A DNA stretch of 59,111 nucleotides, filler included, from Jimgerdemannia flammicorona (lineage: Eukaryota): assembly GCA_003990765.1 (NCBI GenBank). It is 3 parts of 3 records of this genome, joined end to end, with 100 filler letters (N's around TTAATTAATTAA, not from the genome) between each part and the next. Parts side by side here need not be neighbours in the genome. Positions count along the whole stretch, not along the records: positions 1 to 19,645 come from RBNJ01001888.1; positions 19,746 to 39,378 come from RBNJ01001889.1; 1 more part is not named here. One strand, written 5' to 3'. The position numbers and the translations under genes are program-made. Below, in pieces: positions 8,461 to 36,786 of the stretch. Below the pieces are notes generated by a model, which was given only the letters and a program-made list of their open reading frames with translations, was not told where the DNA came from and searched no databases. Within the stretch, counting starts at the first letter, position 1. Every line of letters starts with the position of its first letter.

Positions 8461-11400
8461 CGAAAAGAATGGCGAACCCGCGGTGACGAGGACGGGATAT
8501 GTCGTGAAGTCGGATTGGAACATGGTTGCGGAGAGGGGGTTTAGTTCTAAAGGCTGGGGGCAGAAAGGGTGTGGGGAAGGGGATATAGGTTATAATTCTT
8601 CCCACGAGCAGCCACAAAATTTTACAATGCAACCGGTCAATAAAGGGGGCGTAGATGTCGCGGCGACGAGGTGTCTGCTGTATGCAAATCTATTCATCCT
8701 TTTTGAACGGGGTTGAGCTGTACGAATTAAAAAAAGTAATGGCCCGCCATATTTATAAAGCGCCCTGGCCCGCCATGCCCTCCCGCTCCAGCGCTTGTGG
8801 GTCAGCGTCTTTATAGTGCCCGATGCCGCGACACTGTAAAGCTAAGAGGAAGACGCCAGCTTATCTCTACTAGTTTTGACCCCTGTGGCGTGCGGTTGTG
8901 GGTCAGAGGTGAGTGAACAGAAATTTCACGCCTACAGTCGAGACTGATTGGTGAACAAATGCCGTGATGTGAATCGTGATTTACGCATTTATTGATTCTG
9001 AAAGATCTATTTTAATATAGTGATATCAATAGATATATATAATACTTTATAAAAAATAAAAATAAAAATATTTATTATTTTGAGATATTTTTATAGTAGA
9101 ATGCTCGTTAATTATTAGAAACTAACACTAATTTATTCTAAAAAAAAACTCTAAATATATATCTATTTATTGTTTTAAATAAAGTTAAAATAGAAATATA
9201 TAAGTTTTTATCATAAGTATATTTTAATAAAAATAAAAAATATATTATAATTTTCTTAAAAAAAGTTTATATAAACTTTTACCTTTTTAATATAATATTA
9301 TAAATAAATTATATAATTAAAATTAATTTATAGTATTTTATATTTATAATATGTAATAATACAGTATATCTTAATTATAATATATTTTCATATTATTTTT
9401 TTAGTCTTTTTTTATTCTTTTTTAAATAGCCTATAATATTCTATATAATTTTTTTTTAAATACTTAGAAATTCTTTCTTAATACTAAGAGATTAATAGAA
9501 TATTATAAACTTATATTAGTATAATAAAACTATATACTAATAGAATTACTATATTATAAATAATTAATAGTAATTATTGACTCTAAGTTTGAAATTCTTA
9601 AGAAAGTGTTGAGTTTTAAAATTACCTATTATAGCAAGATCCAAGTATCACTTTTAGGTTCTTGTCTAGGTATAGAAGACTATGCTTATATCTCAAGTTG
9701 ATCAAACTTAGAATAATTAATAAATTAGATCTGAGGTTTTAATAAAAATACTACTTTATTTTTAAATTTAGAAAAGTAGAACTGAGGTTGCAATTTACTT
9801 AGTATAAAAAATATTTATATATTTCAAAGCTATGATCAAATATAGTATACTGGATATGTCTATATATATATATATTATTTTGAGTACTATGACTATTAGT
9901 CAGAAATTCTATAGGAAATTCTTATTGAAAATTTCAGTAGCTTATAATAATTCATTATATCCTTCCCTTCTTTACTTAAACCTACTCATTAGTTTCAGTA
10001 CTAAACTTTAAGTATTTATCAAACTAAAGGACAGTTTACTGAACTACTTAAAAGATAATTTTACTTTATTATTTATTACTCAAGTTGGTAATATTCTTAG
10101 AGAATACTCTACAGAGGTAGTCAAGAACTCAGGATTAGATGCAGAAGAGAATATAGAGTTTTTTGGCAACTATATAAGTATAGTGATTAATGAAAAGGTA
10201 GACTTATTATTTTATAGTACTGAGAGTAGCTTATTGATAGATAAAGTATTCTATCTTATAGTACTCTTTGAGTTCTTATTGATATCAGAATGTCTGGAAA
10301 TACTATATTCTTCTAAGATATTATTGGATTTTATTTGGATCTGGGTCTAGATATTTATATTGATAGATAGTAGTTTGGTAGAGTTTTATTACTCTAAGAA
10401 CTGTAGTAACAATCTTATTTTTGACTTAATCTCAGTATTATTACTAAGTACTTATATTAGAAGAAGTGGGTTATCTATATAAGATTATATCAGAATATTT
10501 ATACTTCTTTTACCAAGATTATTCAAAGATATAACTGTCTTTTGAAAATTCCATCAAAATTTCCATTATATCAAATATTTATATTAGATTACTGCCTCTT
10601 CTATATTTGGTAATAAGTAGTCTTCTTTTTCTCAAATAGTATTATATTTGAGATATTCTTTCCATTTTATAAAATAGTACTAGATAGACTAGGTAGCTCT
10701 TTTAAATTGATGATTTTTATAATCTGGAATATTCAACTTTATATTCTAGCTACTGATCAAATATTATTAGATCTGGGAGTAGTATAGTTCTTTCTTTAAG
10801 GGTGTTTGGAGTATATAGCTGAAGTTGAGATATATGAAACACTGGATAAATTCTTTCTAATATTACTAAGAGATCTAATTTATATATAACAGGTCTATAT
10901 TTTTTAAGAATCTTGAATAGTCTGATATAGTAGGGTCTACATTTCTTTTTTAGACCTATATTACTCAGAATTAGGTTCTAAGTACTGAGTAATACTTATT
11001 CTTCTATTTGTAAGTGACTTCTTTTCTATTCTTATCAGTATATATTATTTGTATTCTTTGTACTTCTATGGGAGTATCTCATACTTGCTAAATATTATCT
11101 TATATAATATCAGTAATTTCTTATACTGCTGATACTATAGTTTGAATAGTAACTATTAGAGTTTGTGGATATTATCCATAGTTCAAGTAGAATGGTATCA
11201 TTTTAGTACTTGTGCTTAGACTATTATTATAGACAAATTTGGCTAGAGTCAGCTTTTCATTCTAATCATTTTACTTATAGCTGTAGTAGATGCTGAGAAT
11301 CTATTTCAGGGTTTGATTAGTTCTTTCTATCTAGCCATCTGTTTGCAGATAGTATACTGTAGATATTTTCAGTTATATTCCTAAACTCTTGAAGAGTACT

Positions 11401-12659
11401 TACTAAAATTACTTATAAACTTTGTATCTTGATCTGAGATAATTGCTAATAGTAGTCTATAAAGACAAAATATGTTATCAATAAATAGCTGAGCTGTTTC
11501 TGATACTATTACCATAGTAGTTATTATAATAAAGTGGATCTGCTTGCTGAGGCAATTAATGCAAATAATGATTGCATCTCTTCTCTTCTTAGTTTTTGAT
11601 AACTGGACAATGAAGTCTATTCTAATATAGTTCTAATTTCAGATAAGAATTAGTAGCAATTATAGAGTACTAGCTGATACTTAATTACTGAACTTATATC
11701 TTTAACAAATATCATAAGATACAATATAGTTCTTAATATTAAATGTCATTTTGGGCCAGTAGAAGTCTTGGGCAATATATTGATATATCTTATCAAAACA
11801 TATATATCTAGTTATAAGTATATCATAAAGTTCTTGTAGGATTCATAAATAGATAGGAATGTCAGAGATCCAAATTCTTATATTGTCAAGGTACAGTATT
11901 TATTTTGAACTAATATATTCTTATAGACTTTGTTTATGATATTATTGTCTTCTTCAAGAATTTGTCTGGTGATTTCTTATATGTATATTAGTATTTTTTG
12001 ACATACTCTTTCTTGAGTTCTTTAAACAGACTGATGATAATAATGTTAATTGCTATAAGATTATCTTTTTGTGTACTTCAGGAGAGTGCATCAGCTATAT
12101 CATTCTTGGTTCTAGCAATGTACTTGATTTTGATGTCAAAGGGTATAAGAATCTATATCTATTGGGCTTATCTTTTAGTAATAATTGGCTGTATCTAGAT
12201 ATATCAGAGGCCTTGATAGTCAGTCTATATATAAGAGAGTTACTTTGTTAGAGTATTATTATATAGTTCTGAAAGGGTTTTCTGGAAGTTCTGGATATTC
12301 TGAACTATTTTCTTTAAGATTAAGATCATTTTCATATAGAGTATATCTTCTATACTTATTGATTTCAAGATTAGATTAATGTCTCAACCAAAGTCCTTTT
12401 TCAGACTTATTCTGGATGTTCAGAAAATTCTGTATTTCAGGAAGTTTAAGAAACTAAGACCAGCTTAGTTGAATTGACATATCACTGCAGATAATATCTA
12501 ATTAGGAAATTTCATAACTTGGTTAGAAGTAGGATCTAATGGGGTACAGATTTACTTAAGAGTAGTTTGTAGATTATTAAATAGATTTAATCACTATTCA
12601 TAATATTACTATATTAGGAGTAGTGTATAAAGAGATATTGTGAAAAAGTATTCAGAAGT

Positions 12660-12830
12660 TCTTATATTCAGATCTGGTACTTGTTTTGTCTAAATTTCTG
12701 AGGTCTGGGAGAGTGGGTATTTATACTAATAGGAGGCTATCTGGACTATACTAAATATGGATATAGTACTTAGTGCTTTGCTGAGTTAGAATACAATCAT
12801 ATAGTATAAGTGTGAACTGATATATCAAGA
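12660..12830 (-). repeat. LTR-like repeat, copy 1
   Basis: About 160 bp aligns by eye with 18525-18676. The minus strand has TATAAATA. Boundaries are approximate. Confidence 0.6.
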
Positions 12831-14118
12831 GATCATCTGACTAATGAGTCAATATATAGTTATATCATATAAAGTTAATTTAACTATACTAATAACTGCT
12901 AAGCTATATATAGATTTAGATTCTATCTGAATAGTCTTTGATGAGGTCACTATTAATGATATTATCTCTGATAAAGTAGTTATCTAAGAGCAGCTTTTAG
13001 ATTATATCTTCTTATTTATTTATATAGTAATAGGTTAGAACTATATCACTATTCTACAGAATAGCATTATCTGTATTATATATTGGATATAGTATTGATA
13101 TATAGAGAAGGAGTGTATCATCTTTGCTTTCATCAAATTTACTATCTGCATATCTTTAGTAAGTATATAATAGTGCTATAAGTTGCAGGGTTATAGTAAG
13201 CTAGTAACTATATTTCATTTCATTTATACTCTATTGGTTTAATCTCAAGGGTTGTCTGGAGATATAGATTATGTTCTCTGATATCTTCATTATAGTTGAA
13301 GTAATCAAATATAAATGTAGGTTAGTACTCATGCCAGTGGTCATTATCTCAATAAGTTTCATAGATAGTTATAAATTATTATAAGTTCATTAATAAGATT
13401 GATAGAGTAATCAGGGCTGGCAGAGAATCTTAACTAAAGGTCATATTATCAGAGATATCATTGTCTTCTTTTTTATCATTATCAAACTAGATTATATTAT
13501 AGATATGTATTCTTCATAGTATATCTAACTTAGGATATTTGCAGAATATGATTATCAGGATGAAAAAAGGATCTGTCTGTAGTTTGAATATACTTAATAT
13601 ACTTGTAGTTGAGTTCTTATACAATATTGTCAATTTGGCCATAAGACAGAATGGTAACCATTTCAGCAGTAGTAACTTGGAGATAGAGAATAAAGATGCT
13701 ATACTTATAAAAGAGTTCTTAGTATTTATAAGTGATGAGTTTCTGGTATTGAGATATTTAGATAATATCTCTATTATAGTAGTGTTCAACTATATCTTCT
13801 AGAAGGTAGCTAATCTAGTAGTAGCTTGAGATTTGTCCAATTCAGTAGACTTTGCTAAGTATGTTCAGGGCATTCCATTGGGCCACTATGAAGTAAAAAT
13901 GTACCAAGCTATAGATATTTATAAGAAGCAGGAGAGATGTAACTTGGTTGACAATAGTATTCCCAATGTTAGTACAGATATAGTTATAGATCTCAGTAAT
14001 CATATTTATATATATATTCAAGAATTATAGTTGTTTGTTTGATTTGTTGTAGTTCTGTATTTCAACATACCTGTGTTTTAAATATATACTTTTTGTTCTG
14101 AATGGTAAGGTTTTATTT

Positions 14119-15884
14119 TATTTTATTTTTTTTTATTTTATTTTATTTTTTTAACAGACTCATAGTCCTGCAGATTTTTATTGAAAGGGAACCTAGACTA
14201 TATAGGCCAAAACCCTCCCCCACTACCCATCAAACAATATCCCCTCATTAATCTAGGCTACTAAACTGTCCAGTAGTCCCACTGCTCCAGCTATGTCTGT
14301 CAAACACTAGCTATATTGACCCCAATGACATAGACTAGACTTGTCTGCTCACCAGGGCTAGATCATCATTTACATGCAAGAGCACACCTATGCATTGGAT
14401 CTAGCAGTACTGGGACTGAATAAAGAATAGCCCCCCAAACCCCAAAAGAAAGCCTGAGGTAAAGAAAAAACCCCCCAACCAATCAATAGAGAACAAAGTA
14501 GATTCAGAGCAGATGAATAAAGGACTTATATGCAGAACCTTCCTCAAAGAACTTATATATACATGGGCTAGGACCAGGAAAGACCCCACTCTCACTCTCT
14601 AAGTCTGTGGGCCTCAATCATATTGCCATATCAGCTCCTAGTTTCAGTTGGGTATAGCCAAATAAGGAAGGCCCCACTCTCCAAGCCTGCAGGCCTTGAT
14701 TGCATTGCCGCATCAGCTCCCAGTTCTAGTTGGGTACAGCTAGGACACCAGCCCCTATACCACCCCACCCCCTATCAGCCAATCAAAAGGTCCCACCAAA
14801 ATATTGTTCATCTTAGCCCCAATGACTGCCCCCAGCCTGGCATCCCACTGGTTCATCATTATTGCCCTTCCTCCTATCTGTGATGGCCATCTCCCCTCCC
14901 ATCCCAACATCACCCAAAAAACAGTCACCTATGTCAGAACTATGCTTGCCAGGAAGCTCGCCAAAGCCAGAGGGCCCCACCACAGATACTAAGGATCTGC
15001 AGGTAACCTATACTGAGCACTTGACACCCAAGGTCAGCCAACTCCCTATGTAGTCTGAGACACACCAAGACAGTACCTTGTTGGCAATAGCAAAAGGAAG
15101 AAGGTGCTGCACCAAAATGGATGCACTCCAGATGCAGCCAAAGGCACCAGAAACCATGAAAAAGTGGAGAAGACACTGATCCAACACCAATAAAGGGGTA
15201 ACTTATCACCATTGCCCTCCTCCCACCATACCTATACAAGGTAGAGGAGGTAATAATAGGTAGTGCTCCTAACGAGTCAATTTAATCCGGATTGGATTCG
15301 GATTGATTCGGATTGAATCCCATCCGAATCAACTTGGATGGGATTCGAATCAACCATTGTTTTGATTTCCAAATTAGATAATTAAATGTTTACATCAATA
15401 ACTCAATGAATAATCATCCAAATTTGATGATCTTGGTGTCATTTGAAAGCCCTCAATAAGGCCTATCTAATGATACCAAGAACATTGAAATCGGATCATG
15501 TGTTGCTGAGTTATGAAGGAAACCGTCTGAATCGCCGATTTTGGAAATTCTTCGATTTGCCAATTTTGGAAATTTCGTCAAATAGAACGTTTTCCTTAAT
15601 ATCTCGGCAACGTGTAATCCGAATTTAATGTTCTTGATATCATTAGGAAGGCCTTATTAAGGGCTTTCAAATGACACCAAGATCATCAAATTTGGATGAT
15701 TATTCATCGAGGTATTGATGTAAACATTTAATTGTCCAATTTGGAAATCAAAACAATGGTTGATTCGAATCCATCCGAATCCCATCCGGATTGACTCGTT
15801 CGGAACACTAATAATAGGGGAAAGGGGACTCAGAAGGTTGCCTACCAAACCTTGTGACTGGTAAGATAGCAGAGAAAGGAGCTC
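14119..15884 (-). mobile_element. Non-autonomous LINE-like retroelement (~1.2 kb without its MITE insert), complete copy
   Basis: 16-bp TSD TGGTAAGGTTTTATTT at 14103-14118 and 15885-15900. AATAAA plus an (AAAAT)n/poly(A) tail lie at the left end on the minus strand. No RT. Other copies at 18677-19395 and 36623-36786. Confidence 0.8.
15261..15810. mobile_element. hAT-family MITE, 550 bp
   Basis: TIRs TAGTGCTCCTAACGAGTCAAT and ATTGACTCGTTCGGAACACTA. 8-bp TSD ATAATAGG at 15253-15260 and 15811-15818. The paralogous host copy (~18735-18760) shows the empty site. CpGs are retained. Confidence 0.95.
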
Positions 15885-16871
15885 TGGTAAGGTTTTATTT
15901 ATGTAAATCTTATATTTTGTGACTTTGAGTTGACTCAGCTTAATGCTCTGTAACTTCAGTTTGACTCAGCTTTGTGATCTTATATGTGATTTTAGTAGCT
16001 TAGAGGTTGTGCACTTATACTATAAAATGAACTTTTTGCTAAAGAGGAAATATCTCTATGCTTGTAGAGATCAGATAATAGCAAAGAGTATCTTATCTTA
16101 TATTATATAATTTCTTTTATACTCATTGAGTTTCTGAGACAGATAGATAATAGAGTATTCATATTGAGTCAGAACTGCTCTAATGGTAATGTTTGAAGCA
16201 TTAGTAGTAACTATGAAGAGTCTAATTAGGTCAGGGCTGATCAGGATTAGTATATTTTTAGTATTCTCTTGAGAGTATTCATAACTATAGTATATGCTTC
16301 TATCTATTCTCTTTCAATTTTAGCTCCTTTTTTTGGCAAGACTTGTGAGTGGGGCAGCAATTGTAGAGAATCTTTGAAAAAATCTCCTGTAATATTCTAC
16401 CAGTTTATTGAATTCTTATAAAAACTTAAGGGTTCTCAGAATGGGTCAATTGCAGATTACTTGAGTCTTCTTGGGGTTAATAGCAATACTATTTTCTGAG
16501 ATAATATGGCCTAAGTATTTAATTTTCTTCTTGAAAAAGTGATATTTCTTTCTTTTTACTAAGAGCTTATATTTGTAGAGTATGTTAAATATCATTTATA
16601 GATATTATTGATTCAAGATATTACTTGTACTGTACACCAGGATATCATCTAGATAGACTAGGATAAATACTCCAAGATATTTTCAAAAGATGTCATTCAT
16701 CAGTATTTGAATGGATACTGATGCATTTGTGAGACTAAATGATATTATACAAAATTCATAATATTCAAATCTTATTTGAAAGACTGTCTTGGGAATATCT
16801 TCTTCTTTGATATATATTAGATAATATCTAGATATATGATTGATGAGTGAGAAGGTCTTGGTCTTATATAT

Positions 16872-17261: not shown

Positions 17262-17299
17262 AAAGTCTACTCAGTTACTGTGAGCTTAAGAAAACTAAT

Positions 17300-19395: not shown

Positions 19396-19407
19396 TATTA
19401 ACATACG

Positions 19408-19745: not shown

Positions 19746-22088
19746 GACCCAACAGTCAAAGCATTCCAACCAGGCCTCCTCCACACTCCCCATACCAGCC
19801 TACTCCCCCAATGTCCATCGTCCCCAATGTCCCCCATCCCTTTTCTAACCAGGATGCCAACCTGCCCTGTCCATATAGCTGCCCCACCCCATTCCCGAGT
19901 CCAGTCCAGTAGGTCCACATCTGGCTCATACCACACATCCTGCAATAGGAAGAGATCTGCCTCCAGACCCTTCAACCAGCTAAAAATGTTTCTATGCCGT
20001 TTTGCCCCCCTTAGCCCATTGACATTCAAAGAAAAGATTCTAGTTGTACTGTTCATATTGAATAATTTTGGTAGGGATATCACAATCTAGAACTCCATGC
20101 TCCTCCTGTCCCCCTCCATATCCATGCGTCGCTCAGCCTCCAACTCGTCCTCCATCACCTCCTGCACATCCAGTGCCTCCAAGATTTCCTGGCACTCTGC
20201 TCCATCAACTACTTCGAATTCGGTCCGATACTCCCTGCACACTACTCCCCACTTCTCCAACCCTTTCTTCGAGTTCCACAGGTAAGCTGCTCGATCATTC
20301 GCAATCACTCGAAGTTCCTCCTCTCGCTGATCATCGACTTGATACTCCACCGACTCCAGGAGCACCGCCAGAATTTCATTCCGGACCTTCATTGGCATCT
20401 TCTCACCACGCAGAATTTCCTCCCAGTGCCTATCACTCATAACCCAGAAGTCCTCACCTCCCAGCTCCTCAGCTGCCACCCCTTCCAGAGTCTTCCACAG
20501 CAACTTCTCCTCCTCCACCACTGCCTCGGCACTCTGGGCACTCCCTTCCCCCCCAACCACTGGGTCCCCCACTGCGATCCTCCTTCCCGACTCATCCCAC
20601 TCCTCCTCCAGGACATCAAGAAGCTCCTCCTCACCTCCGACTCCTCCCGGGACCCCGTATTGTGGCTGTACTTCTATGCTCATCTCAGCGTCCTCCACCC
20701 CACTGCCCTGCCCTCCTTCCCCATGGACCTCTTGGGCCACCCTTTGATCTACTCTGGGCTCCCCAGCCCAGTCACTTTCCCTCGATCCCCCTCCACTTCC
20801 TCCCTCTCCATCTTCCACCACGCCTCCTCCCAATTTCTCCAACAGCTCCCTCTGAATACGCCTCCCCTGCATCTTCTCCCAAGTTCCTCAATCCATCCTG
20901 ATCTTCTTCCCTTCTACAATTTCCACCACCATCTTGGCCTCATACTCCTTTCAAGCCAATCGTCTCCTCTCGACAGCTCCCGTCAGATCCTCAAGAGCCT
21001 CCAGCAAATTCTCCTCTTCCTCCAGTGTCCCTTTCACCTGAGAGACCCTGCACTCAGCCTGTCCCCACTTCAGCATCGCCGGCCAGTCCCTCGCCTTCCC
21101 CATGTTCTCCCGACTAAACAAGCGTACTCTTACATCAACGTCTCCAGTCCTAAGTTCTGTACCCTCCCAGACTTTGAACCCGATATCAATGACATTCCCA
21201 TACTCCTTTACCACCTCCACAATCAACTCCCTAGCCCTCTCCCATGACACCATAGGAAGATCCAGCACTGTCAACTGCACCACTCTTGGGTCCCAGTGCA
21301 TGCACCTTGCCATAGGAACTACCACTCCACCCACTACTACCCCTTTCTCCATAGCCTCCAGCATCGACACCTCTTCTTCAAACCCAACCTCAATCCCTTC
21401 CTTCCCCTTCATGAACTTGACCGTAGCTGCCCCCTTCACCTCCTGCACCACCAGCCCCAGGATCATCCTCACAGTCACTGCCAAGCCTCAGAAACACAAT
21501 GTGACCACGAATTCTGACCTCGACTTTTTGAGTAACGGTGCCGACACCATGCCTGTCACTCCATCAGCCAGGTCCCCGGGCCTCGTGCCCTCCTTCTGAC
21601 CAGATCCGCCAACCACCGTCACATCTGGATTTTTCTCCAGATTCCCCGTCACAGCCCCATCAGCAGTCACATCTCCAACCCCTACTCCCCCTCCCCCCAT
21701 ACCGACTGAGGCTCCCATGGGGGATCCTCCCTGCCCTCCTTCTGAACCCAGTATCACCTTCCCCAGTCCCAACCAACCATCCAGCCCTGCGGCCATCTTC
21801 CCCATCCTGACCTTGTTGGCAAAGGTCGCCCTCCCCCCACCTCTCTGCCTCAGTCTACCTCTCCCTCCACCTCCAGCGCCACCACCCACCACAGACAGCC
21901 CTGGAATCTCCAAACCATCTCCTCGTTTCCTCCCAACCTGCTGCCAGTCGAAGGCCCGGCTGCCCCCCTGGCCGACCTGCCCACCAGTTTGCTTGTTGCT
22001 CGCCATGTTGATAGTAGCTTTTCACCAAAAACTTCGCAGAAAGTGTTGTCCAAATCTTGTGTCACCTGAATGTTACTAGTGAAAGGTG
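19746..22088 (-). mobile_element. L1-like LINE (copy 2): 5' UTR, ORF1 (22006-20087, ~639 codons, two nonsense changes) and start of the ORF2 APE endonuclease (ATG 20056)
   Basis: Three track ORFs lie in one frame, broken by TGA codons. ORF2 reads IFSLNVNGL...ADLFLLQD. The 5' end CACCTTTC is at 22088. Confidence 0.92.
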
Positions 22089-23849: not shown

Positions 23850-24227
23850 TTGCCAGAATACAAGTCAGAAAATGCAGCTGGAATGGACATCACTACAGTA
23901 GAAGAGACTATACTAGAACCCCAGACAACCACCCTACTTGCAACCAGATTGGAGATGACCATCCCAAAGGATCATGTCGGGATTCTCAAGACAAGAAGCA
24001 GCCTGGCTAGAAGCAAAATTACAATTGAAGGAGGAGTCATTGATTCAGACTACACTGGAGAAATTCTACTCATTGCTAGGAATCACAATCCTACAATCCC
24101 ATTTCCAGTCAAGAAGAAGGACCAATTGGCGCAAATGTTGATCTTTCTGATCCTACAACCAAAGATCATAGAAGTTAAGAAGCTGGAGGAAATAAGAAGA
24201 GGAAAGAAAGGATTTGGATCCACAGGA
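23850..24227 (+). CDS. Trimeric dUTPase domain within the retrotransposon pol, in frame with RT
   Basis: All five motifs are present: AGMD, RSSL, GVIDSDYTGEI, LAQ, RGKKGFGSTG. Confidence 0.95.
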
Positions 24228-26922
24228 AGAGGAGTATTTGCCAACATCAAGATCACTGAACTTGAGCATAAGAAGGAGGAAAACACAAGCAAGCACAGCT
24301 ACACCATCAGAAATGAATTTCCACTCAAGAAAGAACTCAAGAAAATACTCCATGAATTTGAAGATGTCCTTGCCACAGATTTCAAGGATATCAAAGGAAA
24401 GACCCCACACTACTATCATGAAGTAGATACTGGAGACACTGAACCAATTTATCAGAAGGCAAGACCTGTCCTGCCAGCCTACCAAGAATGGCTCAGAGAA
24501 GAAATCAAGCAGATGGAAGAAGCTGGCATCATTAAAGAAGCCAGTAGCCCCTGGTCCTCACCTGTTATACTAGCCTCAAAAAAAGGAAGTAAGCCTGGAG
24601 AATTCGCCCCAAGACTCTGTATCAACTACAGAAAACTCAACATGGTTACCAAGAAGGATTGCCAACCACTGCCCCTCATCAATGACATCCTTATAATACT
24701 GGGAGACAAAGCACAATACTACAGCACCTTGGACTTATACTCAGAATTCCACCAAATCGGACTCACAGATATGGCAAGTGAAAAGTCAGCTTTCATCACT
24801 CCAGATAGAACCTATATCTACCTACGAATGCCATTTGGAATGTGCAATGCACCAGCAAGTTTCCAGTGAATGATGAATAAAATCTTCCACTATGACATGG
24901 GAAGATGGATAATGGTCTACATCAATGATGTAATCATCTACAGCAAGACACCTGAGGAATATCTGCAGCACATACAGCAGATAATGGAGAGACTAAGACA
25001 ACATGGCCTTTACATCAAACCCAAGAAGTGCAAGTTCGCAGAAATCGAGATCTCCTATCTTGGCCACATCATCAACCGAGATGGAACATATACAGACCCC
25101 CTCAAGATACAAGCAGTGGCAGCATACCCAAGACCCACCACTGTTATGGAAGCCCAAGCCTTCATGGGACTCACCTCCTATTATCGCAGATTTATTAGAG
25201 AATTTTCTAATATTGCAGGACCAATCTACAAACTTAACAAGAAGGATACCAAGTTTCAGTAGACTGGCAAACAACAAAAAGCATTTGATGAACTCAAGGT
25301 CAGACTGACCCAGGTATCTATCCTCAGAAGACCTGACTGGACTCTAGAATTCATCCTATAGACTGATGCAAGTGCACAAGGACTAGGAGCAGTCTTAGCT
25401 CAAAAGAAAGATAAAGTGGAGTATGTCATTGCATACCTCAGCCGCAGAACCCGAGGAGCTGAAAAAGAATATGAATCCTACAAGTTAGAATGCCTTGCAG
25501 TCATCTAGACCATAGAAAAGTTCCACTACTACTTGGCTGGAAGATACTTCACCATCCAAACAGACCACTCAGCTCTCACCTGACTACTGGCAACTGGACA
25601 ACCCAAAGGAATCTATGCCAGATGGATAATGAAGTTGCAAACTTATGATGTAACTATCATACACCACTCTGGAAGAACCAATGCTAATACCGACACCCTC
25701 TCACGGACACCCTGAAAGACCCCACCCCAACAAAATCATCATGAATAAGAAGCTCTACTACAGAATTATCACATACCTGAGACAGTGAAAGATGCCCCAA
25801 ATCTGGAAGAATGGACACAAACGATTATCAACAGAACATGGAAACAATTCGAAACTGATGGAGAAACACTGAAGAAAGGAAAACTACTAGTCATACCAGA
25901 ACATAAGAAGGAACAAGCAATGAAATCAGTACACAAACTTGGCCATCTAGGAGGAACAAATACATACAACAAGACAAGAAGAACAATATGGTGGCCAGGG
26001 ATGGAGGAAGATATCAGACAATTTGTCAAGACCTGTGACAAATGCCAGAAACAGAAACAAGATCAATGAAATCAAGCCTCAGGATCAGCACACATAGAAT
26101 CAGTACCATTTGCCCACATTGCAATGGATGTAATTAGCCCTCTACCCTTGACTTTGACTGGCAACTGATACATCATCGTTATTGTAGACCTTTTTACAAA
26201 ATGGATAGAAGCAGGACCCCTTATAGAAGCCAATGCACAGTCAATTGCTGATTTCTTCCACAAGGAAATCATCTGCCAGTTCAAAACTCCAACACAAGTA
26301 ACTACAGATAGAGGAATAGAATTTGTGAATCAGTTCTTCGAAGTTCTCTACAAGAAGTACAAGATCCAGCATATTTGGACTACAGCATATCACTCTCAAG
26401 GAAATGGACAAGTAGAAAGGACCAAAAAAACCCTCAAGAATGTTATTGCCAAGATAGGCGATAACTACGAGAACTGGGATCACTATCTACCAATAGCATT
26501 ATCTGCCCTCTGAGATATCCGATCACAAAGTACCCACTTTACCCCTCGAGAAATGCTGTTCGGAGAAGAATGTTCTCAGGGAACCCTGTCATCCAATGGA
26601 GATGCTGTATGGAAACATGTGGACATGGAAATATAGAGACTACACCAAATCAGAAAGAAGGCTGAGGATTACATAATGAAGGCACAGACACTACAATGGA
26701 GAAATGTGGAAAAGACCCACAAACCCTTGGAGATTATCAAGATAGGAGACAAAGTCCTGGTGTATCGGAATATGGTTGAAGCTTCATGGTCATGAAAACT
26801 GGAGCCCAAGTGGAAAGGACCTTACCTTGTGCAAGATATAAAAGAAACCACCTTTTGGCTACGAAAACCCTCAGGCACAATAATCCCCACCACCATTCAT
26901 CGAAACTGACTCAAGAAATATT

Positions 26923-27382
26923 ATGGCCAGTAACACAAGTACTATGATGGCACTCAAGATCACTAGTGCTGCCCAAAGGGCCATTAAGAGACAATGGTGC
27001 ACCACCAAGCCCCTGACCATAGAGGAGTCTTATGACAGTATCCAAAGTATCGTGCAGACTCATCTCTCTTGGATCTCACACTTCAAGGCCTATTAGCATT
27101 GGAATGAATTCCAAGAGTACTTCAAACTTGGCCAAGTACTCAACCAAGACCCAGAAATGACCAAAGAATTGAATCACAGAATGCCAGCTCTCCTATTCCC
27201 AGATCACCATTGTCAAAAGAATCCACAAGCTATTCCGAGAGGATGAATCAGCACTAGCCCACCTGCGAGGAGTGACTCCCTCAGACTTCGACCAAGTCAG
27301 GCAATACCAGTGGAAAACAGTGATACAACAAATCATGCAATATAAGACCATATAGACCATTGAAGCTTGGAAGTTTGAATAG
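26923..27382 (+). pseudogene. Extra ORF (ORF3, ~150 codons) between integrase and PPT
   Basis: ATG at 26923 overlaps the end of the integrase frame (TAA 26931-26933). Codon style matches pol. Two TAGs revert by single transitions, and one frameshift lies near 27190. Confidence 0.6.
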
Positions 27383-27419
27383 ATGCTTTAGAGACGAGAT
27401 CATCTATTCAGGAGGAAGT

Positions 27420-27886
27420 TGTGATGGTATAGCCAGATTCGGAAGAAGGAAATAGGGAATAGATACTTGATCGCACCCAGTCCCAAAGTAGTATAGCCAC
27501 ATAGTTAACAGTCCTCGATTTCGCAACTTGCTAAATATTTTGCAAAGTGCAAGATCGAGCTCTCTGATATAGTATAGTATTTCGCAACTGGCGAAACATT
27601 TTGCAAAGTGTTAAATGACTCATAACTTAGCCATGTAACTCAGTAACCATCTCATAGTTAGCAAACTTGTATAAATAACCCAGTATCTTTAAGTGAATAA
27701 ACCTCAGATCGAAATAGTTCAAAGCAAAGAGATAGTAAAGGAACTAGTAAGCCTGTGGGCAGATATACCTCAAACTCACCCACCCTCTCCTGCAACTTCA
27801 AGAGACTCTGTGAGAGTCAGAACAGTCAAGTTTTCAAGATACAGAAATCCGATGTACTTTCAAGAGTAAGTGTCCACTATATTACA
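27420..27886 (+). repeat. 3' LTR (467 bp) of the dUTPase gypsy element
   Basis: Termini TGTGAT...ATTACA follow the PPT. TATAAATA and AATAAA at ~27670-27700. The hAT sequence resumes immediately after. Confidence 0.85.
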
Positions 27887-30800
27887 ATATATATCCAAAT
27901 TGTCACTGCATTTAGCATATACCTCTTAGTGGTAATAAGATTTATCTAATCAGAGAATATCTGTTTGACAGAAGTATTGGTGGCAGGAATTACCATATAG
28001 TCTCAAGCCATACCATATAGGCTGGAGAAGTCTATTTGATGTAGCTGCAGCCATATACCCCAGTGAGTAGAGTGGTGGTTAGAACAGTAGTTAGGTTAGT
28101 AAATTAAATTGGCCCAACACAACCAATCACCTATCTGAAAACTCACCTTTCACCAATTGAGCACCTCTATGCCCTCCAGCAGGATCATACAGTCACTGAT
28201 AAGATAAATAGTGAGTTTATTTATTGACAGTAGCTCTTCTACTAATTGCTCTCTCTTTCTCTTTCTGCTGAAGTAAATGTGGGACAGGAGGGATCTCTCA
28301 GTATATTCATCCAGACTTCAGCTAGAATCTTGCAGCAGTATATAGTTTTTCTGATATGTTTTAATTATAGCCCACTTAGTTCCCTCAATATAGTAATGCT
28401 CTCAGCTCTTATCTTTACAGTATTGTAGCTTTAAGTATAGGTCCAGCACTGTTTGGAGAAAGAGAGTGAGTTTTGTGGGAGTTTCTCTGTTTTGGAAGAG
28501 ACAATGGCCATATATTGATATACCTATACTGATTGAGTATATGGCAGCATCTGTTTTGAAGTAGTATTTTCTGAGCTTACTTAGAGCAACCTCCACAGTA
28601 TCTCTCTGATCTGAGCATAACTATAAATCACCACTACTCTCTAGTCTATCCTCAAGCTTATCCTCTAGCCAGTTAATCAAAAAGTTGTATACTGGTATTG
28701 TAGAACTTATTGTCAGAGTCATTTATTTGACTATATTCTTTATACAATCATCAAAATACTGTCAGTTATATATGGGAGGTAAAATATTATACAGAGGTAG
28801 ACAAAATAAGTTTAGGGTTAGAGTAATCATTACTTACTTCCGAAAATCTAATAACATTCCTAAGTATATGTCACTCACTTTCATCTGTAGCCTTACTCTA
28901 TATTACCTTGTCAATAGCAACCATTGAATCTATTGGCCTATTTTGTTGTTTTTTTTTTTTTTTAAAAAAAAAAGAAACTTCAATTATCTGAAAGAAGTTG
29001 CTTCAGCCAATTGAAAAAAAGAATGCATACCACAGCAAACTCCAACACATGCTGGATCATTGCAAATATTGAGTTCCAATATATACAGATATCCAATATC
29101 TGTTCTTTTGGGGCTAAACTGATTGCCCTACACTATATAGTAAATTTGTCTCATTGTTGTAGAGATGCAGACCAACATAATCAGTTTGTACAGCTTGGAA
29201 ACTATACTCAGAGCCTCTCCTCTCTCAGATGTTTGGTCTATGTGCATAAGATAGTTCTGAATAGTGAGGTTCAGTATGTGTGCCTGGTATTATATATGGT
29301 AGCTTTCTATATAGAAGACCAAATTTTTCTATTTTGAGGCTGTCTATTATAACTTAGAAAATATTGAGTTGTTTGTAACATTATCTATCATAATGGCCAA
29401 AATCTGTACTTGAAATATTTGGTCAGCAAATTTATATGAAAATAAATAACCAATAAAATCTGTTTTGTTTTTAAACCTCTCTCAAAATACCAATCTGATG
29501 GCAAGCCCCCCTTTTTTATCTTGGTTGTGATACCAAGCTCTCAGATATAACTAATAAAAGCATCTGCAATATTTTCTCCAGAATGAGGGTTAGCAAGTTT
29601 GATGAAGTCAAGAATGAGAGATTTAAGCTGCCAATCAAAGTTAATTCAATTACTAGTAATGCCCAGAAATGAAATTATATTGAGGGATGTCCATGTGTTG
29701 ATTATAAATGAAATTTTGCCTATTAAATTCTGCTTATTGAATATGTATAAGATTAAATTGGTGAGCTCTTTTATAAATATATATATATATATAATTCAGC
29801 TTGCACCTTTCACCAGTAACATTCAGGTGACACAAGACTCAGACAACACTTTTTATAATGTTTTAGGTGTCTGATGACTAACAACACGGATGGCAATAAT
29901 CAAACTGGTGAGCATACTGGCCAGGGGGGTAACAGCATCTTTGGCTGGCAACAGGTGGGGAGGAGGGGAGATGGTTTAGGGATGCCAGGGGCCTCGATGA
30001 CAAGCCGAGGCCCTGGTGGTAGAGGGAGGGGCAGTCTGAGGCAGAGAGGTGGGGAGAGGTTGATCTTTGCTGACAAGATCAGAATGGGGAAGATGGCCTC
30101 TGGTCTAGATAATTGGCTGGGCCTAGGGAAGGCATCAACAGCTGCTGCTGGGGGACTGGGAGGTGTGCCCAGGGGAGCTTCTGATGGTAGGGAAGGAGCA
30201 GGAGTAGGGGCTGGAGATATGACTATTGATGGGGCTATGACTGGGGATCTGGCAAAAAATCCAGATGTGACAGTAGTTGGCAATTCAGGACAAGGGGTGG
30301 GCACAAGGCATAGGGACCTGGCAGATGGGGTGACTGGAATAGTGTTGGCCCCATTACTCAAGAAGTCAAGGTCAGAATTCGCAGTCACAATGTGTTTCCG
30401 GGGCTTGGCAGTAATGACAAGGATGATCTTGGGGCTGGTGGTACAGGAGGCAAAGGGAGCAGCATTGGTGAAGTTCTTAAAGGGGAAGGAAGGGTTTGAG
30501 GTGGGGTTCAAGGAGAAAGATGCCCTGCTGGCAGCCTTGGAGAAAGAGGTGACAGTTGGTGGAGTTGTGGTCCCCATGATCAGGTGTATGTACTGGAACC
30601 CTTGGGTGGTACAGTTGACAGTGTTGGATCTCCCTATGGTGTCGAAGGAGAGGATCAGAGAGTTGGTTGTGGAGGTGATCAAGGAGTATGGATAGATTGT
30701 GGACATTGGGTTCAAGGTATGGGAGGGTACCAAGCTCTAGACTGGTGATGTCGATGTCAGAGTGAGGCTGACTGGAAAGGAGAATATAGAGAAGTCGAGG

Positions 30801-33800
30801 GACTGGCCAGTGATGTTGAGGTGGGGACTAGTGGAGTGCAAGATCACATGGGTGAAGGGGACCCAGGAGGAGGAGGAAGATCTGCTGGAGGCTCTGGAGG
30901 ATCTGGAAGAGGCAGTTGCAAGGAGGAGATTGGCTTGGAAGGAGTTTGAGACCAGAATGGTGGTGGGAGAGGTGGATGGAAAGAGGGTCTGGATGGAGAG
31001 GGGGGCCTGGGAGAAGATGCAGGGGAGGAAAATCCAGAAGGAGTTGTTGGCAAAGTTGGGTGGGGGTAGAGCTGGCAGGAGCTCAGGGGAGAGGGATGCA
31101 GGATTGCAGGAGAGTGCCTGGGCTATGAGGGGCAAGAGGGCCCAGAGTGGGGCTTGGAGTGGATTGGAGGAGGTGAGAAAGGCAATATGGTGGCAGATAC
31201 AGATATGAGCGAAGATGTATGCCCTCAGTATAGTGTCCCAGGTGGTGTAGAGGGGGAGGAGGAGCTGCTGGATGTGCCAGATGAGGAGTGGGATGAGTCA
31301 GTGAGGAGGAGTGCTCTGGTGGACCCTGAGGTGGATGGGGGGCAAATCATCCAGAGTATGGCAGTGGCAGTGGATGAGGAGAAGTGGATGTGGAAGAATC
31401 TGGAAGGAGTAGCGGCAGAGGAGCTAGGGGGAGAGGATTTCAGAGTTATGGAAGAGAGATATTGAGAGGAGATCCTATGGGGGGAGGAGGTGCCCTGGCT
31501 GTTCTCCTGGAGTCAGTTGAGTATCAAGTCGATGATCAGAGAGAAGAGGAACTTAGGAAGATGGCGAGTGACTGGGCTTTATACTTGTGGAACTCAAGGA
31601 AGGGACTGGAGAAGTGGCATGCAGTCTGCCTGAACTACCAGTCAGAGATGGAGATAGTGGACAGGGTGGAATGTCAGGAAATCTTAGAGGTGCTGGATGC
31701 TCAGGCTAATGCCGAGAGTGATTTGGAAGCCGAACAGAACTTGGATCTGGCTGGGGATGAGATGAGCATGGAATACTAGACTGAGATCTCTATTGCAATA
31801 TTTCTTCAATATGAACCGTACAACTAAGATATTCTCTTTGAACATAAATGGGTTATGGGGAGTGGCTAGGTGGAAGTATATATTGGGATGGCTTAAGAGA
31901 CTGGATACAGACCTATTCTTGTTGCAGGATATTCGTTATGAGGCAGATGTAGATTTATAGGATTAGACTAAGGAATGGGGGGGGGTGGCAGTATGGAGGG
32001 GGAAAGTGGGTATTCTTGTTTGGAAAGGGATGGGGGACATTGGGGACATTGGACACTGGGGGTCTAGGGTGGTGTGGGGGGTGTAGAAGAGGCCTGGATG
32101 GGGCTCATTGACAGTTGGGTCTTGTTACTGCCCGGCTGAGAGAGGGGAGAGGGTAGATTGGATTCACAGATTGAAAGAAACTGGTGTCTTAGGTGAAGTT
32201 GGGTTGGACTGTCTGGGGGGTGATTTCAACATGGTGTGGAATAAGGAGATGAATAGGTCAGATGGAGGGAGGGGCATGCAGGGTGAGAGTGGTGGGCTAG
32301 GTGACTGGTTGGAGACAGAGAGGTTGAGCTTGTTAGTGGACTCTGAAAGACAGTTTTGGAACAATAGACAGGTGTATACCCACTGAGCAGCAGGGCTGGG
32401 CTCTAGGATTGGCTGGGTTTTGACAGCAAATTGTTGGGGGGCCGATGTCTGGGTGATACTGGAGGTAGTTTGATGTCTATGGATTGATCACTGGGGGCTA
32501 TTAGGTGGGGGGAGGTTTGGGGGAAGTGAGGAGGGGCCTGGACATTAGTGACTAAATTCTTCCTTATTGGAGGATAGAGCTTTGTGGAAGGGTTGAGAAG
32601 TGGAGATTATTGAGAATATTGGTAGGTGGCAGGAATGGGGCCTAGGGATTGGGGACTGCTGGAGGAGACTGAAGGCGAATGCTCAAGGGTATTGGAGGGA
32701 AGCTGGGAAAGGAAGAGGTGCTCAGTGATGGCAGTGGGTGCTGTGGGCCTCACAGTGTCTGGCAGCACTTATGGGGAGATGGGCAGATGTGCTAGAAGAT
32801 GGGAGGTGATGGATTGGCGTATTGTGAGAATCTGAAAGAAGGTGGAGGAGCTTAGAGGAGTGCTATGTAGTGAGGAGGAGGTAAGACTGCAGGGGATGGT
32901 GGTCTGGCTGTAGTGGCAGGGGCTTGAGGAGGGGGAGAGGCCTACTAGATTTCTGTTACAGTTATTACAAGCAAGATGAACAAAGCAGCAGTGGGAGGGG
33001 GTTCTAGATGCGAATGGTGAGCTGGTGGTGGGGACTCAGGCAATTTTGAGTTTACTGAGAATTTATTGGGAGAATCTATGGAGTAAGGAGGAAGGAGGAG
33101 TAGATGCCTTGGATATTGAATGGCAGCTGGAGGATTGGCACCTGAACCCTGCAATGGGTCTGGGGGATTTGGGGGACCCAGTGAGTGGAGAGGAAATCTG
33201 TAAGGTTGTGGTCTCAATGAGTAAGGGGATAGCTCTGAGGGAGGATGGACTTCCCTGGGATTTTTGGAAGAAGATGGCTGGAGTGGGCGAGGTGCTGGAG
33301 GAAATAACTGCTATGTGTGATGAGGTTCTTCGGTCTGGTACTTGGATTGGGAGACAGTGTCTAGGGCTAGTCTCTTTACTCTACAAGAATAAGGGGAGGT
33401 GGGAAGATTGGAGGAACTAGCATCCGATCATGCTACTTGACATGGACCGCAAACTGGTGATGAAGATCTTAGTGATGAGGTTGCAAGGGATCACTCAGCA
33501 AGTGCTTGGTGTGGAGCAGCATGGGTTTGTAGGTGGTCGGTTGATTCGTGATGGGACAGCTTGGGTCCATGGAGTGATTGAGGGTACCCGGGCTATAGGG
33601 GTGGATAGCCAGTTGGTATTTTTGAATCAGGAGAAGGCATATGATAGGGTGCAGAGGATCTGGCTAGAAGGAGTGCTGAAATGGATCAGTATTCCCCTGG
33701 GGTTCCAAGGGTCGCTGGTCAGCCTCTTGGAGGACAGTTAGGCTGCATTGGTCATCAATGGCCATAGGGGGGTGACCTTTCCCCTGAGTCATGGGGTGCC

Positions 33801-35533
33801 ACAAGGGGATCCCTTGTTGCCCATATTGTATGTGCTCTCCCTGGAGCCCCTACTGGATAGGATTCAGTGTCAGATTGGGGGTTTGGATATTCTAGGGATT
33901 AATTGGAAGGTGGGGGCCTTTGCTGATGACATAGTGGTCAGGCTGGACTCCTTGATAGATATGGGGGAGTTGCAGAGGTCTGTAGAATGGTATGAGAGGG
34001 GATCTGGTGCTAATCTAAACTGCCACAAATGCGAGACTATGGTGCTGGGTGCTGGAATTGTTGGTGGTGATGTAATTGAGATAGTGGTGCCGGCCAGTGA
34101 ATCAGTGTATTACATATTTGGGAATCTACTTCTCAGTATTCGGATCTCTTCTTCCCATGCTTGGTGGAACTGACAACTTCTGGAGTGGAGAAACATTCTA
34201 CTATGATGGGGAGGTCGGCAGATGTCTCTAGCCAGAAGGGTGATGGTGCTGAATGTATATTGAATGCCAAAGCTGTGGTATGTGGGGTATCATTTGGACT
34301 TCCCACCTTGGGTGGTCAGGGGGCTGTTGAAGATGGCGAGGTCATGGATCTGGGGAGAGTGGTGGAGCCAGGTGGGGTGGGAGGTCCTTACACTACCAGT
34401 GAAAAGAGGTGGGCTTGGTTTAGTTGACTTTGCTAAGTGGCTTCATTGTTTGTGAGCTTGGTGGTTGCAGAGGGTGAGTGAGCTGAGGGGTCAGGAGTGG
34501 ATGCCACTTATGCAGAGGGTATGGGAGGTTTGGTACTTGTGGTGGCTCTGGTGACTTGCTGTGATGGTGGCTATGGATGAGAGCTGGAGGGTGCAGTTTA
34601 CAGGCTTTTGGTGGGGAGTGGTGGATGGTGCTAAGAAAATTGGACTTTGGTGGCAAGGTGATGAGGCTGAGGAGGATTGGAGACTGCTGATGTGGAGGTG
34701 GGATAGACTTCTACTAGGTGGTGAGCCAGTGGAGGTGTTTCAGCTTGGCAAGAGTATGGAGTATCTGTGGGGCTTGGGTGGTGACCTATGGCCCGAAGCC
34801 TGGCAGAGGGTTGGAATTGTTGAGGAGTGGGATTGGAATGGACTCTGGCTTTGGAGTAAATGGGTGAGGCAGTGGCTGCTCCCCAAGTTCTGGGTGGTGT
34901 GGTGGCAGATCCTATGGCAGAATGTGATATTGAACTATCAGTCTGGGTACTTGGTGGATGGTGGTGTGTTCGAGTGCAAGGAATGTTTCAATGTTAGTCA
35001 GGAGGGAGGAGTGGTTCAGACACCAGAACATTGGCTTGGTGAGTGTGAGGTTTTGGAGGAGTTTTGGGGATATATCATGGACCGGTTAGGGCTGTATGCC
35101 TTGGAGGGAGGGGAAGGGAGGAGATGGGGAGAGCTCCACTGACAACTGATAGGTGGGGTTGGGGATGAATGGCTGACCCTTGGCTGGGCTCTGGCCATGT
35201 GGGTTGGATTAGCTGAGCATTGGGTTCATGTATTTGAGGAGGGACAGCAGGTTGGGGTTTGGGATAAGGTGGCATGTTGGGAATGGCTATTATTAGACAT
35301 TTGGAATGGCTGGTGGCAAGGGTGGGGGCCAGGTGGGGGGAATTGCAGGGGTTTGGTAGAGTGTATCTCCCAAAAGAGTGATGGGAGGATTTGGGTAGTG
35401 GGTGGCTGGGTGGTACTTGGGCAGAGAGAGGTTGCAGAGAGAGGGATTGGGTCTCTGGGGCATTGGTTGAGGATTTGGAGTGATATTTTATTGTTAGAAT
35501 TTTAGATAGCAGTAATAAAGGGCAGTCCAAGTG

Positions 35534-35571
<38 letters not shown>

Positions 35572-36622
35572 CAGCTTACAAAGATCATAGTGCTGCCCTT
35601 ATTTTACCTAAAGTATTTAGTAGAGATTGTCATGCTCCTTTTTATAAGCCTCCAGGACATCTTTGCAAATATTATCAGCACTTAGAAAATATAAATCATA
35701 CTTGAGGAGGCCAAAGATGCCATGCAATTTATCACTCTTGATAGTTGTGAATGGCTGGTCTATATACACAATCTAGTGAATGAGCTGATTTTGAAATTCT
35801 GCCAAAGAGTATGGCTAAATATTTTTGATTAAATAGGGTTGTTGGTATAGAAATAGTCTGACAATTGGATAAATATATCCACTATAGCTTGGATATTGAT
35901 TTTATTTATCTCTGTATTCTTTTTGATTTTGTCAGAGTACTTGTCTTTTATATATCAATATATGTTCAAAGTTAAACTATCAAGCATTTTGAACTTCTGA
36001 CTGTATAGTTTATGAGGGGTAGATAAAATAGTATCATATGTATATTAAACAAAGTATTAGTTATATTATAGGTATGTCTTTTTTTTTTTTTAAAAATTTT
36101 TTATCTATAATAGTTACAAACAATATCATCTCCCATCTTAGTACAATGTTGCTAGACTCAGAGTGAGGATTATATGGAAGGTGTGGAAATATTGAGGATG
36201 TTTGACTTAAAGCATTATTGATACTGTGAACTGTTGAAGGCTAATCTATTGATATATGTGTTTATATATATATATATTATATATGTGAATATATCTGGCA
36301 TATAAGTCATATAGAGAATTCAGATTAGAGAATTTGAATTAGAGGATTCAGATTAGAGGATTTAGTTGAAGGATTCAGATAAGAATTCAGATTGAAGGAT
36401 TTAAATTGGATGATTTGGATTGAGTGATTCTGATTGAGTAATTTGGATTGAGTGATTCAAATTGAGTAATTTGGATAGAGTAGTTCAGATGAGGTAATTT
36501 GGATGGGATGATTTAGATTAATCTAAGTTGATTCAGATGGCTTCAGATTGAGATTTCAGATCAAACTGTCATGTGATGAATCAAATCCAGATTTGATTTG
36601 AATTGACTTGTTTGGAGCACTA
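27887..36622 (-). mobile_element. Degenerate autonomous hAT transposon with an intron-containing transposase, interrupted by an L1-like LINE; other end not visible
   Basis: TIR TAGTGCTCCAAACAAGTCAATT at 36622-36601 matches the MITE TIR. Subterminal GATT(C/T)(A/G)GATT repeats at 36310-36600. Transposase relics: BED finger, IVYIDQPF, GKISFIINTWTS, HSGENIA, IDNVTNN, LDICIYWNS, LSKLRKYY, LDLYLK, and dimerisation domain MA*DYMVIPATNTSVKQIFS. Confidence 0.9.
29804..35540 (+). mobile_element. Full-length L1/Tx1-like LINE (copy 3, ~5.7 kb): ORF1 ~29886-31779 and ORF2 31811-~35505 (APE endonuclease, RT, C-terminal Cys/His motif); inactivated by stops
   Basis: EN SLNING/LLQD/GGDFN/DH. RT EDGLP, LLDMDRK, QHGF, QEKAYDRV, GVPQGDPL, AFADD. 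C-terminal CKEC...EHWLGEC. AATAAA near the 3' end. TSD (TA)nATTCAGCTT ends at 29802 and 35577. Confidence 0.96.
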
Positions 36623-36786
36623 CTGACACTGATAAAGGGGCAACTTATCACTATTGCCTCCCTCCCACTGCCTTATATCAGGTATAGCAAACCAACCAGA
36701 GATAGAGGGGGTATTAGTTATGGAAAGTGAACTTGGAAGGTCACCTACCAAATCTTGTAACTGGTAAGGTAGCAGAGAAAGGGGTG
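36623..36786 (-). mobile_element. Non-autonomous LINE-like element, copy 3 (5' end), host of the hAT insertion
   Basis: Matches 15180-15260 plus 15811-15880; 5' end CACCCCTTTCTCTGC. Confidence 0.8.

Follow-up and report, generated by a model that had tools for sequence, protein, structure and literature searches.

CpG-poor transposons alternate with CpG-normal DNA

We analyzed a stretch of 59,111 bases (the window) in which DNA with normal CpG content alternates with nearly CpG-free DNA, and in which a dead Ty3/gypsy retrotransposon, termed E1 here, carries a heavy load of C>T and G>A changes, also outside CpG. CpG counts and observed/expected ratios (o/e) were 487 and 0.98 at positions 1-8984 and 114 and 0.96 at 36787-39378, compared with 40 and 0.16 at 8985-19645 and 148 and 0.17 at 19746-36786. 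Farther along, the o/e was 0.01 at 39479-43250, 1.28 at 45751-50516 and 0.95 at 53061-59111. Unique segments thus span 0.95-1.28 and repeats 0.01-0.34. CpG depletion and a TpG/CpA excess are limited to repeats, as in CpG methylation decay of the DNMT1/DNMT5 type: the CA/TG o/e is 0.97-1.12 in unique DNA, where CpG is about 1, compared with 1.26 in a second gypsy element (E2) and 1.25 in a copy of a long interspersed nuclear element (LINE copy B). Steps in CpG o/e and in GC content at the repeat edges show the decay to be confined to transposons, with genes spared.

An earlier, sequence-only reading of this DNA had CpG nearly vanish at ~8.99 kb and return at ~36.8 kb, and indeed we find the drop after position 8984 and the recovery at 36816. 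The same reading had treated 8985..36786 as one CpG-poor block; the loss is real but uneven, with CpG-bearing islands at 15273-15801 (22 CpG), 19406-19624 and 20127-22140, and a spacer at 19646-19745 divides the block into two contig ends or repeat clusters, which do not form one nest. This spacer and an identical one at 39379-39478, of 100 bases each, look synthetic (N44-TTAATTAATTAA-N44) and are probably artificial contig joints. In self-comparison, both are adjoined on at least one side by the end of a copy of the same LINE family. LINE copies ending at the spacers make a pattern of assembly breaks in repeats, and we therefore treated the window as three joined contigs. Because the spacers look like contig joints, neither the order of the three pieces nor their contiguity, for instance across 19.7 kb, can be taken for granted.

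Two Ty3/gypsy elements and a LINE family

Features were called by Pfam scans, self-comparison and a pol profile hidden Markov model (HMM) derived from 59 gypsy polyproteins. E1 lies on the minus strand and is split by an insertion. Its reverse transcriptase (RT) and RNase H part (16020..16865; HMM match 16865-15966, E 1e-72) is heavily C>T/G>A mutated and holds 11 in-frame stops in 280 codons, while the C-terminal part of RNase H and the integrase occupy 10926..12229 (HMM matches 12230-11943, 11938-11393 and 11423-10926), with a Pfam SH3_Tf2-1 match at 10753-10977 in the same region. Altogether, E1 pol covers profile columns 134-845; over the 698 aligned columns its frame shifts twice and is interrupted by 40 in-frame stops. 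Within the minus-strand E1, a short plus-strand segment (17118-17258) matches the RT part of the pol profile at columns 84-130 (E 1.4e-7), which could be an artefact or the remnant of a different gypsy element.

Between protease and RT domains, E2 (22090..29802, plus strand; CpG o/e 0.16) bears a dUTPase domain (Pfam E 1e-26; region 22630-26948, plus strand). Its pol (24315-26948, profile columns 8-892) stays in one frame with 14 stops. The best database matches to E2, at 49% identity or less, are unnamed metagenome polyproteins and give no taxonomic guidance. The sense strand of E2 is A-rich, with an AT skew of +0.30 to +0.34 at 22-26 kb. Pfam and the pol HMM showed both E1 and E2 to have the Ty3/gypsy order of protease, RT, RNase H and integrase, the latter with H2C2 and rve domains. 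No pair of long terminal repeats was found for either element by blastn, purine/pyrimidine-coded blastn or short-word blastn, and self-comparison gave no second E1 copy within the window. The best of 150 listed library matches to E1 are 26-40% identical. In place of close relatives, conserved columns of the 59-protein profile served as the reference for polarizing its changes.

The insertion in E1 RNase H (12230..16019; 3,790 bases, GC 0.35, CpG o/e 0.02) had been noted before for its TA...TA ends; we can add a 5-bp target duplication, CTATA, on its flanks (12225-12229 and 16020-16024), beyond which the E1 frame resumes. Inside the insertion sits a palindromic element resembling a miniature inverted-repeat transposable element (15322..15791; 470 bases, inverted self-match), whose arms are 81% alike and differ by 20 transitions and 25 transversions. 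The enclosing 15273-15801 segment is not CpG-depleted (o/e 1.26), and the palindrome seems to escape whatever targets the neighboring transposons. The proposal that decay tracks nesting depth agrees with this one readable nest, GC being 0.24-0.31 in E1 and 0.35 in the insert, and the inner palindrome being CpG-normal.

The 5′ region of the LINE is present in three copies that are 72-75% alike. Copy A (19746..22089, minus strand), the 5′ 2.3 kb, is partly CpG-depleted (o/e 0.34); copy B with its decayed tail (29803..36786, plus strand; RT at 33421-34170, FADD intact) has a CpG o/e of 0.09; copy C (39479..41516, minus strand), beyond the block first outlined, has one CpG left and a CpA>TpA excess. 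A further 5′ fragment that kept its CpGs closes the first contig (19409..19645, plus strand; 87% identical to 29805-30041). LINE ORF2, for which the sequence-only reading also listed TGG turned into TAG or TGA, bears six in-frame stops, possibly of that origin. On the sense strand of the 5′ region (29803-32121, plus; 19746-22089, minus; 39479-41516, minus), G makes up 35-41% and C 12-14% in all three copies; as it is common to all of them, this strand skew is native to the family and not a product of post-insertion decay.

E1 exceeds E2 almost solely in GC>AT transitions

Changes were counted at codon bases fixed by the residue, in pol columns with the same residue in half or more of the 59 references, using the same columns for E1 and E2. 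GC>AT transitions affect 73/190 sites in E1 and 26/190 in E2 (Fisher p=5e-8), while the two elements are alike in AT>GC transitions (5/206 vs 8/206, p=0.57) and in transversions (37/396 vs 32/396, p=0.61). Both strands of E1 are equally affected (G>A 46/113, C>T 27/77, p=0.45), and G>A and C>T changes are interleaved (runs test p 0.77-0.92), as for independent per-site events. The runs tests gave no support for strand-coordinated processive deamination. Dominance of GC>AT in repeats and on both strands is a property that E1 shares with the products of canonical RIP (repeat-induced point mutation).

The protein-level consequences follow the same line. Conserved Gly is retained at 3/19 positions in E1 vs 15/22 in E2, conserved Pro at 6/20 vs 19/26, and conserved Trp at 1/5 in E1. 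The sequence-only reading had listed TGG turned into TAG or TGA in pol, and His CAT and Cys TGT turned into TAT. We see the former in E1, and as a W>TAG change in E2 at 25260, and the latter at 5/8 conserved His and 2/3 conserved Cys of E1. Its broader claim of non-CpG C>T/G>A change on both strands holds strongly for E1 and more weakly for LINE copy C, but the rest of the block shows ordinary CpG decay.

Could such a spectrum arise by ordinary neutral decay, E1 being very old and at the genome's AT-rich mutational equilibrium, with CpG methylation added? Unique AT-rich tracts do occur, e.g. 50001-51000 with a GC content of 0.25 and a CpG o/e of 1.04, and two frameshifts plus a nested insertion imply that E1 is not young. 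As a neutral proxy for unmethylated DNA, we used tandem arrays in CpG-normal DNA, a small, majority-polarized sample in which some arrays are possibly coding. These arrays also lean toward GC>AT (41 changes, compared with 18 AT>GC and 17 transversions); however, the 73:5 of E1 is more one-sided (p=3e-4), its per-site ratio of GC>AT to AT>GC being ~16 against ~2-3 in the arrays. Moreover, E1 has no extra transversions or AT>GC changes relative to E2, and its protein similarity is still strong, as judged by the E value of its RT/RNase H match. We consider neutral decay an unlikely source of the E1 pattern, and the sequence context of the changes, given next, also speaks against it.

Cytosine loss in E1 depends on the 3′ neighbor

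Within codons, at dinucleotides that were certainly not CpG, 12/24 CpA/TpG and 13/43 CpC/GpG sites of E1 have changed. Over all columns, where the neighboring base is ancestral if codon-fixed and otherwise the present-day one, changes are seen at 14/31 C before A (~45%), 11/29 C before C (~37%) and 11/31 G after G. Of the 41 CpT/ApG sites, one is hit (a C followed by T, 1/16; G preceded by A, 0/25), which differs from both CpA (p=3.6e-6) and CpC (p=2.3e-5), and 6/7 sites still showing a CpG partner have changed. E1 thereby displays the order CG > CA > CC >> CT that is reported for the 5mC preference of Zymoseptoria Dim2, a methyltransferase. Near-complete sparing of CpT/ApG beside 37-45% mutated CpA and CpC is not what neutral decay would leave.

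We also applied the E1 context rates to E2 coding DNA in a simulation. With CpT spared, simulated GC content is 0.30 (0.283 observed in E1) and the share of surviving C before T is 0.525 (0.535 observed). A context-free process gives 0.42 for this share, and a Neurospora-like CpA model misses the CpA and CpC shares. Loss of CpG only would bring GC from 0.418 to 0.409, far above the 0.28 of E1.

Two other specificities were considered and rejected. Plant-like CHG methylation does not fit, as CAG/CTG is undepleted in E1 (Markov o/e 1.18-1.25). A rule based on the 5′ neighbor, as for APOBEC enzymes, does not fit either, as TpC and CpC show no selective loss on the 5′ side in E1.

CpG-type decay predominates in E2 and in LINE copies A and B

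Most changes in E2 are of the CpG type: G after a surviving C is altered at 10/20 sites, compared with 3/35 after A. In a two-rate picture, about half of the E2 CpG sites are lost and the expected CpA loss is ~13%, with the observed loss within error of background. A change of the RT motif YIDD to YIND had been reported from the sequence; the motif is present, but it belongs to E2 and not to the LINE (TAC ATC AAT GAT at 24918), and the change is CpG-type.

For the LINE, per-strand loss was estimated with highest-GC polarization. It amounts to 0.23 at CpG and 0.05-0.16 at non-CpG sites in copy A, to 0.41-0.53 and 0.12-0.18 in copy B, and to 0.55-0.58 and 0.15-0.20 in copy C, with 0.23-0.27 at CpA in the latter. 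By majority rule, the changes private to copy C fall on 11/25 CpG, 56/289 CpA/TpG, 43/354 CpC/GpG and 21/306 CpT/ApG sites, with AT>GC at 32/841; copy C thus repeats the context order of E1 in weaker form (CpA vs CpT p=5e-6). Majority rule over three copies misassigns CpGs that were lost in two of them, and what look like A>G and T>C changes in copy A are therefore retained ancestral bases. Pairwise C/T rates overstate CpA, since two copies may have altered the same ancestral CpG differently, one to CpA and the other to TpG, and only net differences were considered. Decay in E2 and in LINE copies A and B is mainly CpG-type.

Another candidate is an AID/APOBEC-like deaminase that edits retroelement cDNA before integration. 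In its favor, strand skew is strong in E2 and the LINE, and at the sampled sites of E2 G>A changes (21/113) outnumber C>T changes (5/77). However, codon-fixed sampling catches CpG on the G side only, and 10 of the G>A changes lie at C|G codon junctions, so that part of the asymmetry stems from sampling; the E2 excess was set aside as evidence of editing for this reason. The G-rich sense strand of the LINE is native, as noted above. In addition, the two strands of E1 are hit equally, and specificity resides in the 3′ neighbor, as for a methyltransferase, not in the 5′ one. Editing of cDNA is, in our estimation, very improbable.

E1 compared with canonical RIP

Canonical RIP is triggered by duplication above a threshold of length and identity, mutates both copies, depends on RID and takes place premeiotically. 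The usual index cut-offs are roughly >0.89-1.15 for TpA/ApT and roughly <0.75-1.03 for (CpA+TpG)/(ApC+GpT), along with a positive composite. E1 coding DNA yields 1.03 and 1.20, respectively, and a composite of -0.17; a preference for CpA>TpA, expected under canonical RIP, is not seen in it, with CpC and CpA affected to a similar extent and CpT spared. The index test proposed with the sequence-only reading thus fails in the coding part of E1, where the context order fits a Dim-2-type methyltransferase better.

Only the intervals within 9001-11000 pass (TpA/ApT 1.18-1.22, (CpA+TpG)/(ApC+GpT) 0.62-0.75), and these take in part of a tract of extreme AT content with which the CpG-poor block begins on the left (8985..9600; GC 0.05-0.16 per 100 bp). 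GC content steps abruptly at 8984/8985, from 0.47-0.56 just upstream. The tract may be a transposon end or a native spacer, and because it is so AT-rich (GC 5-16%), its absence of CpG is uninformative.

E1 resembles the targets of RIP in Neurospora crassa and other Pezizomycotina in its repeat-restricted GC>AT changes on both strands, its many stops and a GC content down to 25-30%. RIP is reported to prefer CpA, then CpT (PMC4352252, PMC8016269). E1 is unlike such targets in that CpT is spared, CpG and CpC are affected, the indices fail in coding DNA and the host lies outside Dikarya (see below).

A true RIP-type defense, with duplication-triggered, RID-dependent and stage-specific C>T bursts on E1 and some other repeats on top of a separate CpG decay of all transposons, would explain several of our observations: an E1 excess over E2 that is almost solely GC>AT, on both strands and in a sharp, enzyme-like context, the abrupt GC step and the index values next to it. 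A RID homologue is, moreover, reportedly retained in arbuscular mycorrhizal fungi (AMF; PMC8298701). On the other hand, the CpA-centered indices fail in the E1 coding part, the index-passing intervals contain a tract of uncertain origin, no strand clusters of G>A or C>T are seen, and the multi-copy LINE shows little non-CpG change in copies A and B. Published screens, as far as their accounts go, confine RIP-like signatures to ascomycetes (PMC12543289) and detected none in Gigaspora or Mucoromycotina (PMC8647823). A defense of this type is possible, but we regard it as doubtful.

A model of transposon-directed methylation with a Dim-2-like component

The mutation spectrum of E1, its contexts, its strand symmetry, its restriction to transposons and the phylum of the host are direct observations on the DNA. 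Because the changes are near-pure C>T, occur on both strands, are confined to transposons and follow a 3′-neighbor rule, we favor a process linked to a cytosine methyltransferase, namely transposon-directed methylation that includes a Dim-2-like non-CpG component and is followed by deamination, to which we assign a probability of about 0.5. We infer that methylation was involved, which enzyme acted and when.

Transposons, unlike genes, would most likely be cytosine-methylated, and C>T changes on one strand or the other would follow from deamination of 5-methylcytosine (5mC). The first sites to go would be CpG, a stage that E2 and the LINE copies may represent. A slower, non-CpG arm would act at CpA and CpC and barely at CpT; in E1, the oldest and nested copy, it might account for the disappearance of about one in three G:C pairs and for dozens of stops. 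A DIM-2-like enzyme is suggested because CG > CA > CC >> CT is the order measured for Zymoseptoria tritici Dim2, and deamination might be spontaneous or enzyme-assisted. Decay would then accumulate in a "mitotic RIP-like" manner, unlike canonical premeiotic RIP.

In Z. tritici transposons, Dim2-dependent 5mC has been reported at ~43-61% of CG, 10-22% of CA, 3-8% of CC and <0.01% of CT sites (PMC8016269), and a more than tenfold rise in C>T mutation of these transposons during mitosis was ascribed to Dim2 (Moller et al. 2021, PMC8016269). As described there, that system and ours are alike in being transposon-restricted and dominated by C>T, in the same order of contexts as the 5mC preference and in needing no visible strand coordination. 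They differ in that here CpG is essentially erased, CpC is affected nearly to the extent of CpA, and the host belongs to the mucoromycotes and not to the ascomycetes.

CpG methylation decay by DNMT1/DNMT5, as in AMF and Basidiomycota, matches the window in its transposon-versus-gene bimodality, its repeat CpG o/e near 0 and its TpG/CpA excess, and nothing beyond it is needed to explain E2 and LINE copies A and B; it cannot, however, yield the E1 GC content of 0.28 or the CpA and CpC changes. CG methylation of AMF transposons has been published (PMC8647823, PMC13443276). Transposons of Tuber melanosporum (Amselem et al. 2015, PMC4352252) offer a further parallel, a transposon-laden mycorrhizal fungus whose methylated transposons have a C>T bias at CpG first and then at CpA; T. 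melanosporum is, however, an ascomycete with RID and Dim-2, and its available description mentions neither changes at CpC nor an exemption of CpT.

As to candidate enzymes, AMF are reported to carry DNMT1, DNMT2, DNMT5, DIM-2 and RID, the sister clades of Mucoromycota having reportedly lost RID (PMC8298701), and Dim2 is reported in Phycomyces (PMC7862722). For Rhizophagus irregularis, 32.5-49.5% of cytosine is given as methylated (PMC8298701), with mCG at 13.8% of cytosines in a separate study (PMC8647823). Jimgerdemannia is reported to consist of >77% repeats (PMC10386755). Supplementary tables excepted, the literature searched for Glomeromycotina and Endogonales offered no description of transposons losing C to T outside CpG.

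Several points weigh against the methylation model. The strong non-CpG signal comes from one element, E1, with LINE copy C as one weaker case, both from a single window. The excess in E1 is nearly pure GC>AT, which fits a fast enzymatic burst at least equally well. At 100/168 of the E1-only context sites, the neighbor is the present-day and not the ancestral base, and the tandem-array baseline is small and polarized by majority rule only. LINE copy B has no preference for CpA over CpT (27/289 vs 28/306). Furthermore, Dim2-dependent mutations in Z. tritici are reported to fall >98% at CA, with CG spared, whereas CpG and CpC are also affected here.

The alternatives of the sequence-only reading, broad-context methylation decay or a RIP-like defense, are also the ones to which our data lead, with the qualification that change beyond CpG is strong in E1 alone. 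A tentative formulation, to which we give rather less credence than to the methylation model, is a repeat-targeted cytosine mutator in Mucoromycota, a RID- or DIM-2-dependent RIP-like defense of undescribed specificity that affects CpG, CpA and CpC and exempts CpT. If so, a third of the G:C pairs of a transposon could be stripped with almost no other change.

Methylation-driven decay beyond CpG has so far been documented mainly in ascomycetes, and E1 points to the same kind in an early-diverging fungus. Glomeromycotina and Endogonales are mycorrhizal lineages with transposon-swollen genomes. If the E1 signature were genome-wide, repeat mutation linked to methylation and following a Dim-2-like context rule would be older than Dikarya, there would be a possible explanation for the very high overall 5mC content of R. 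irregularis, and sparing of CpT with loss of CpA and CpC would provide a sequence-only marker of such decay in other early-diverging fungi.

Host genes and further features of the window

Two genes bear on the host. An Hsp70-like gene at 88-1486 has three database matches, the best two from Jimgerdemannia flammicorona (Endogonales; 69% and 61% identity). An open reading frame, P0001 (46733-47440, minus strand), has 14 database relatives, and all eight named ones among these matches are from Glomeromycotina (Ambispora, Funneliformis, Acaulospora, Glomus and Rhizophagus; 36-76% identity). Judging from these matches, the host is a Mucoromycota fungus near Endogonales or Glomeromycotina and no ascomycete. 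The earlier premise of a Mucoromycota-type host is in line with both genes, and a RIP-competent ascomycete is not supported.

P0001 shows a weak NAL1_N-like match (E 2.6e-4, under the Pfam cut-off), an atlas comparison returned sub-threshold leads only, and among its AMF relatives, some bear an N-terminal domain of the Crinkler type (PF20147). It may belong to an effector-like gene family common to mycorrhizal fungi.

Additional CpG-free, AT-rich repeats lie beyond the block first outlined, at 41517..43250, and are related to 43932-45301 and 51838-51988. Very AT-rich CpG-free tracts adjoin CpG-normal, gene-like DNA at 42950-43250 and 45350-45750 (GC 0.08-0.24), and a 648-base CpG gap at 49869-50517, also AT-rich, is similarly placed; all three may be either decayed repeats or native spacers. 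Finally, a perfect run of 50 A residues at 48098-48147, in CpG-normal DNA, is possibly the tail of a retroposed sequence.

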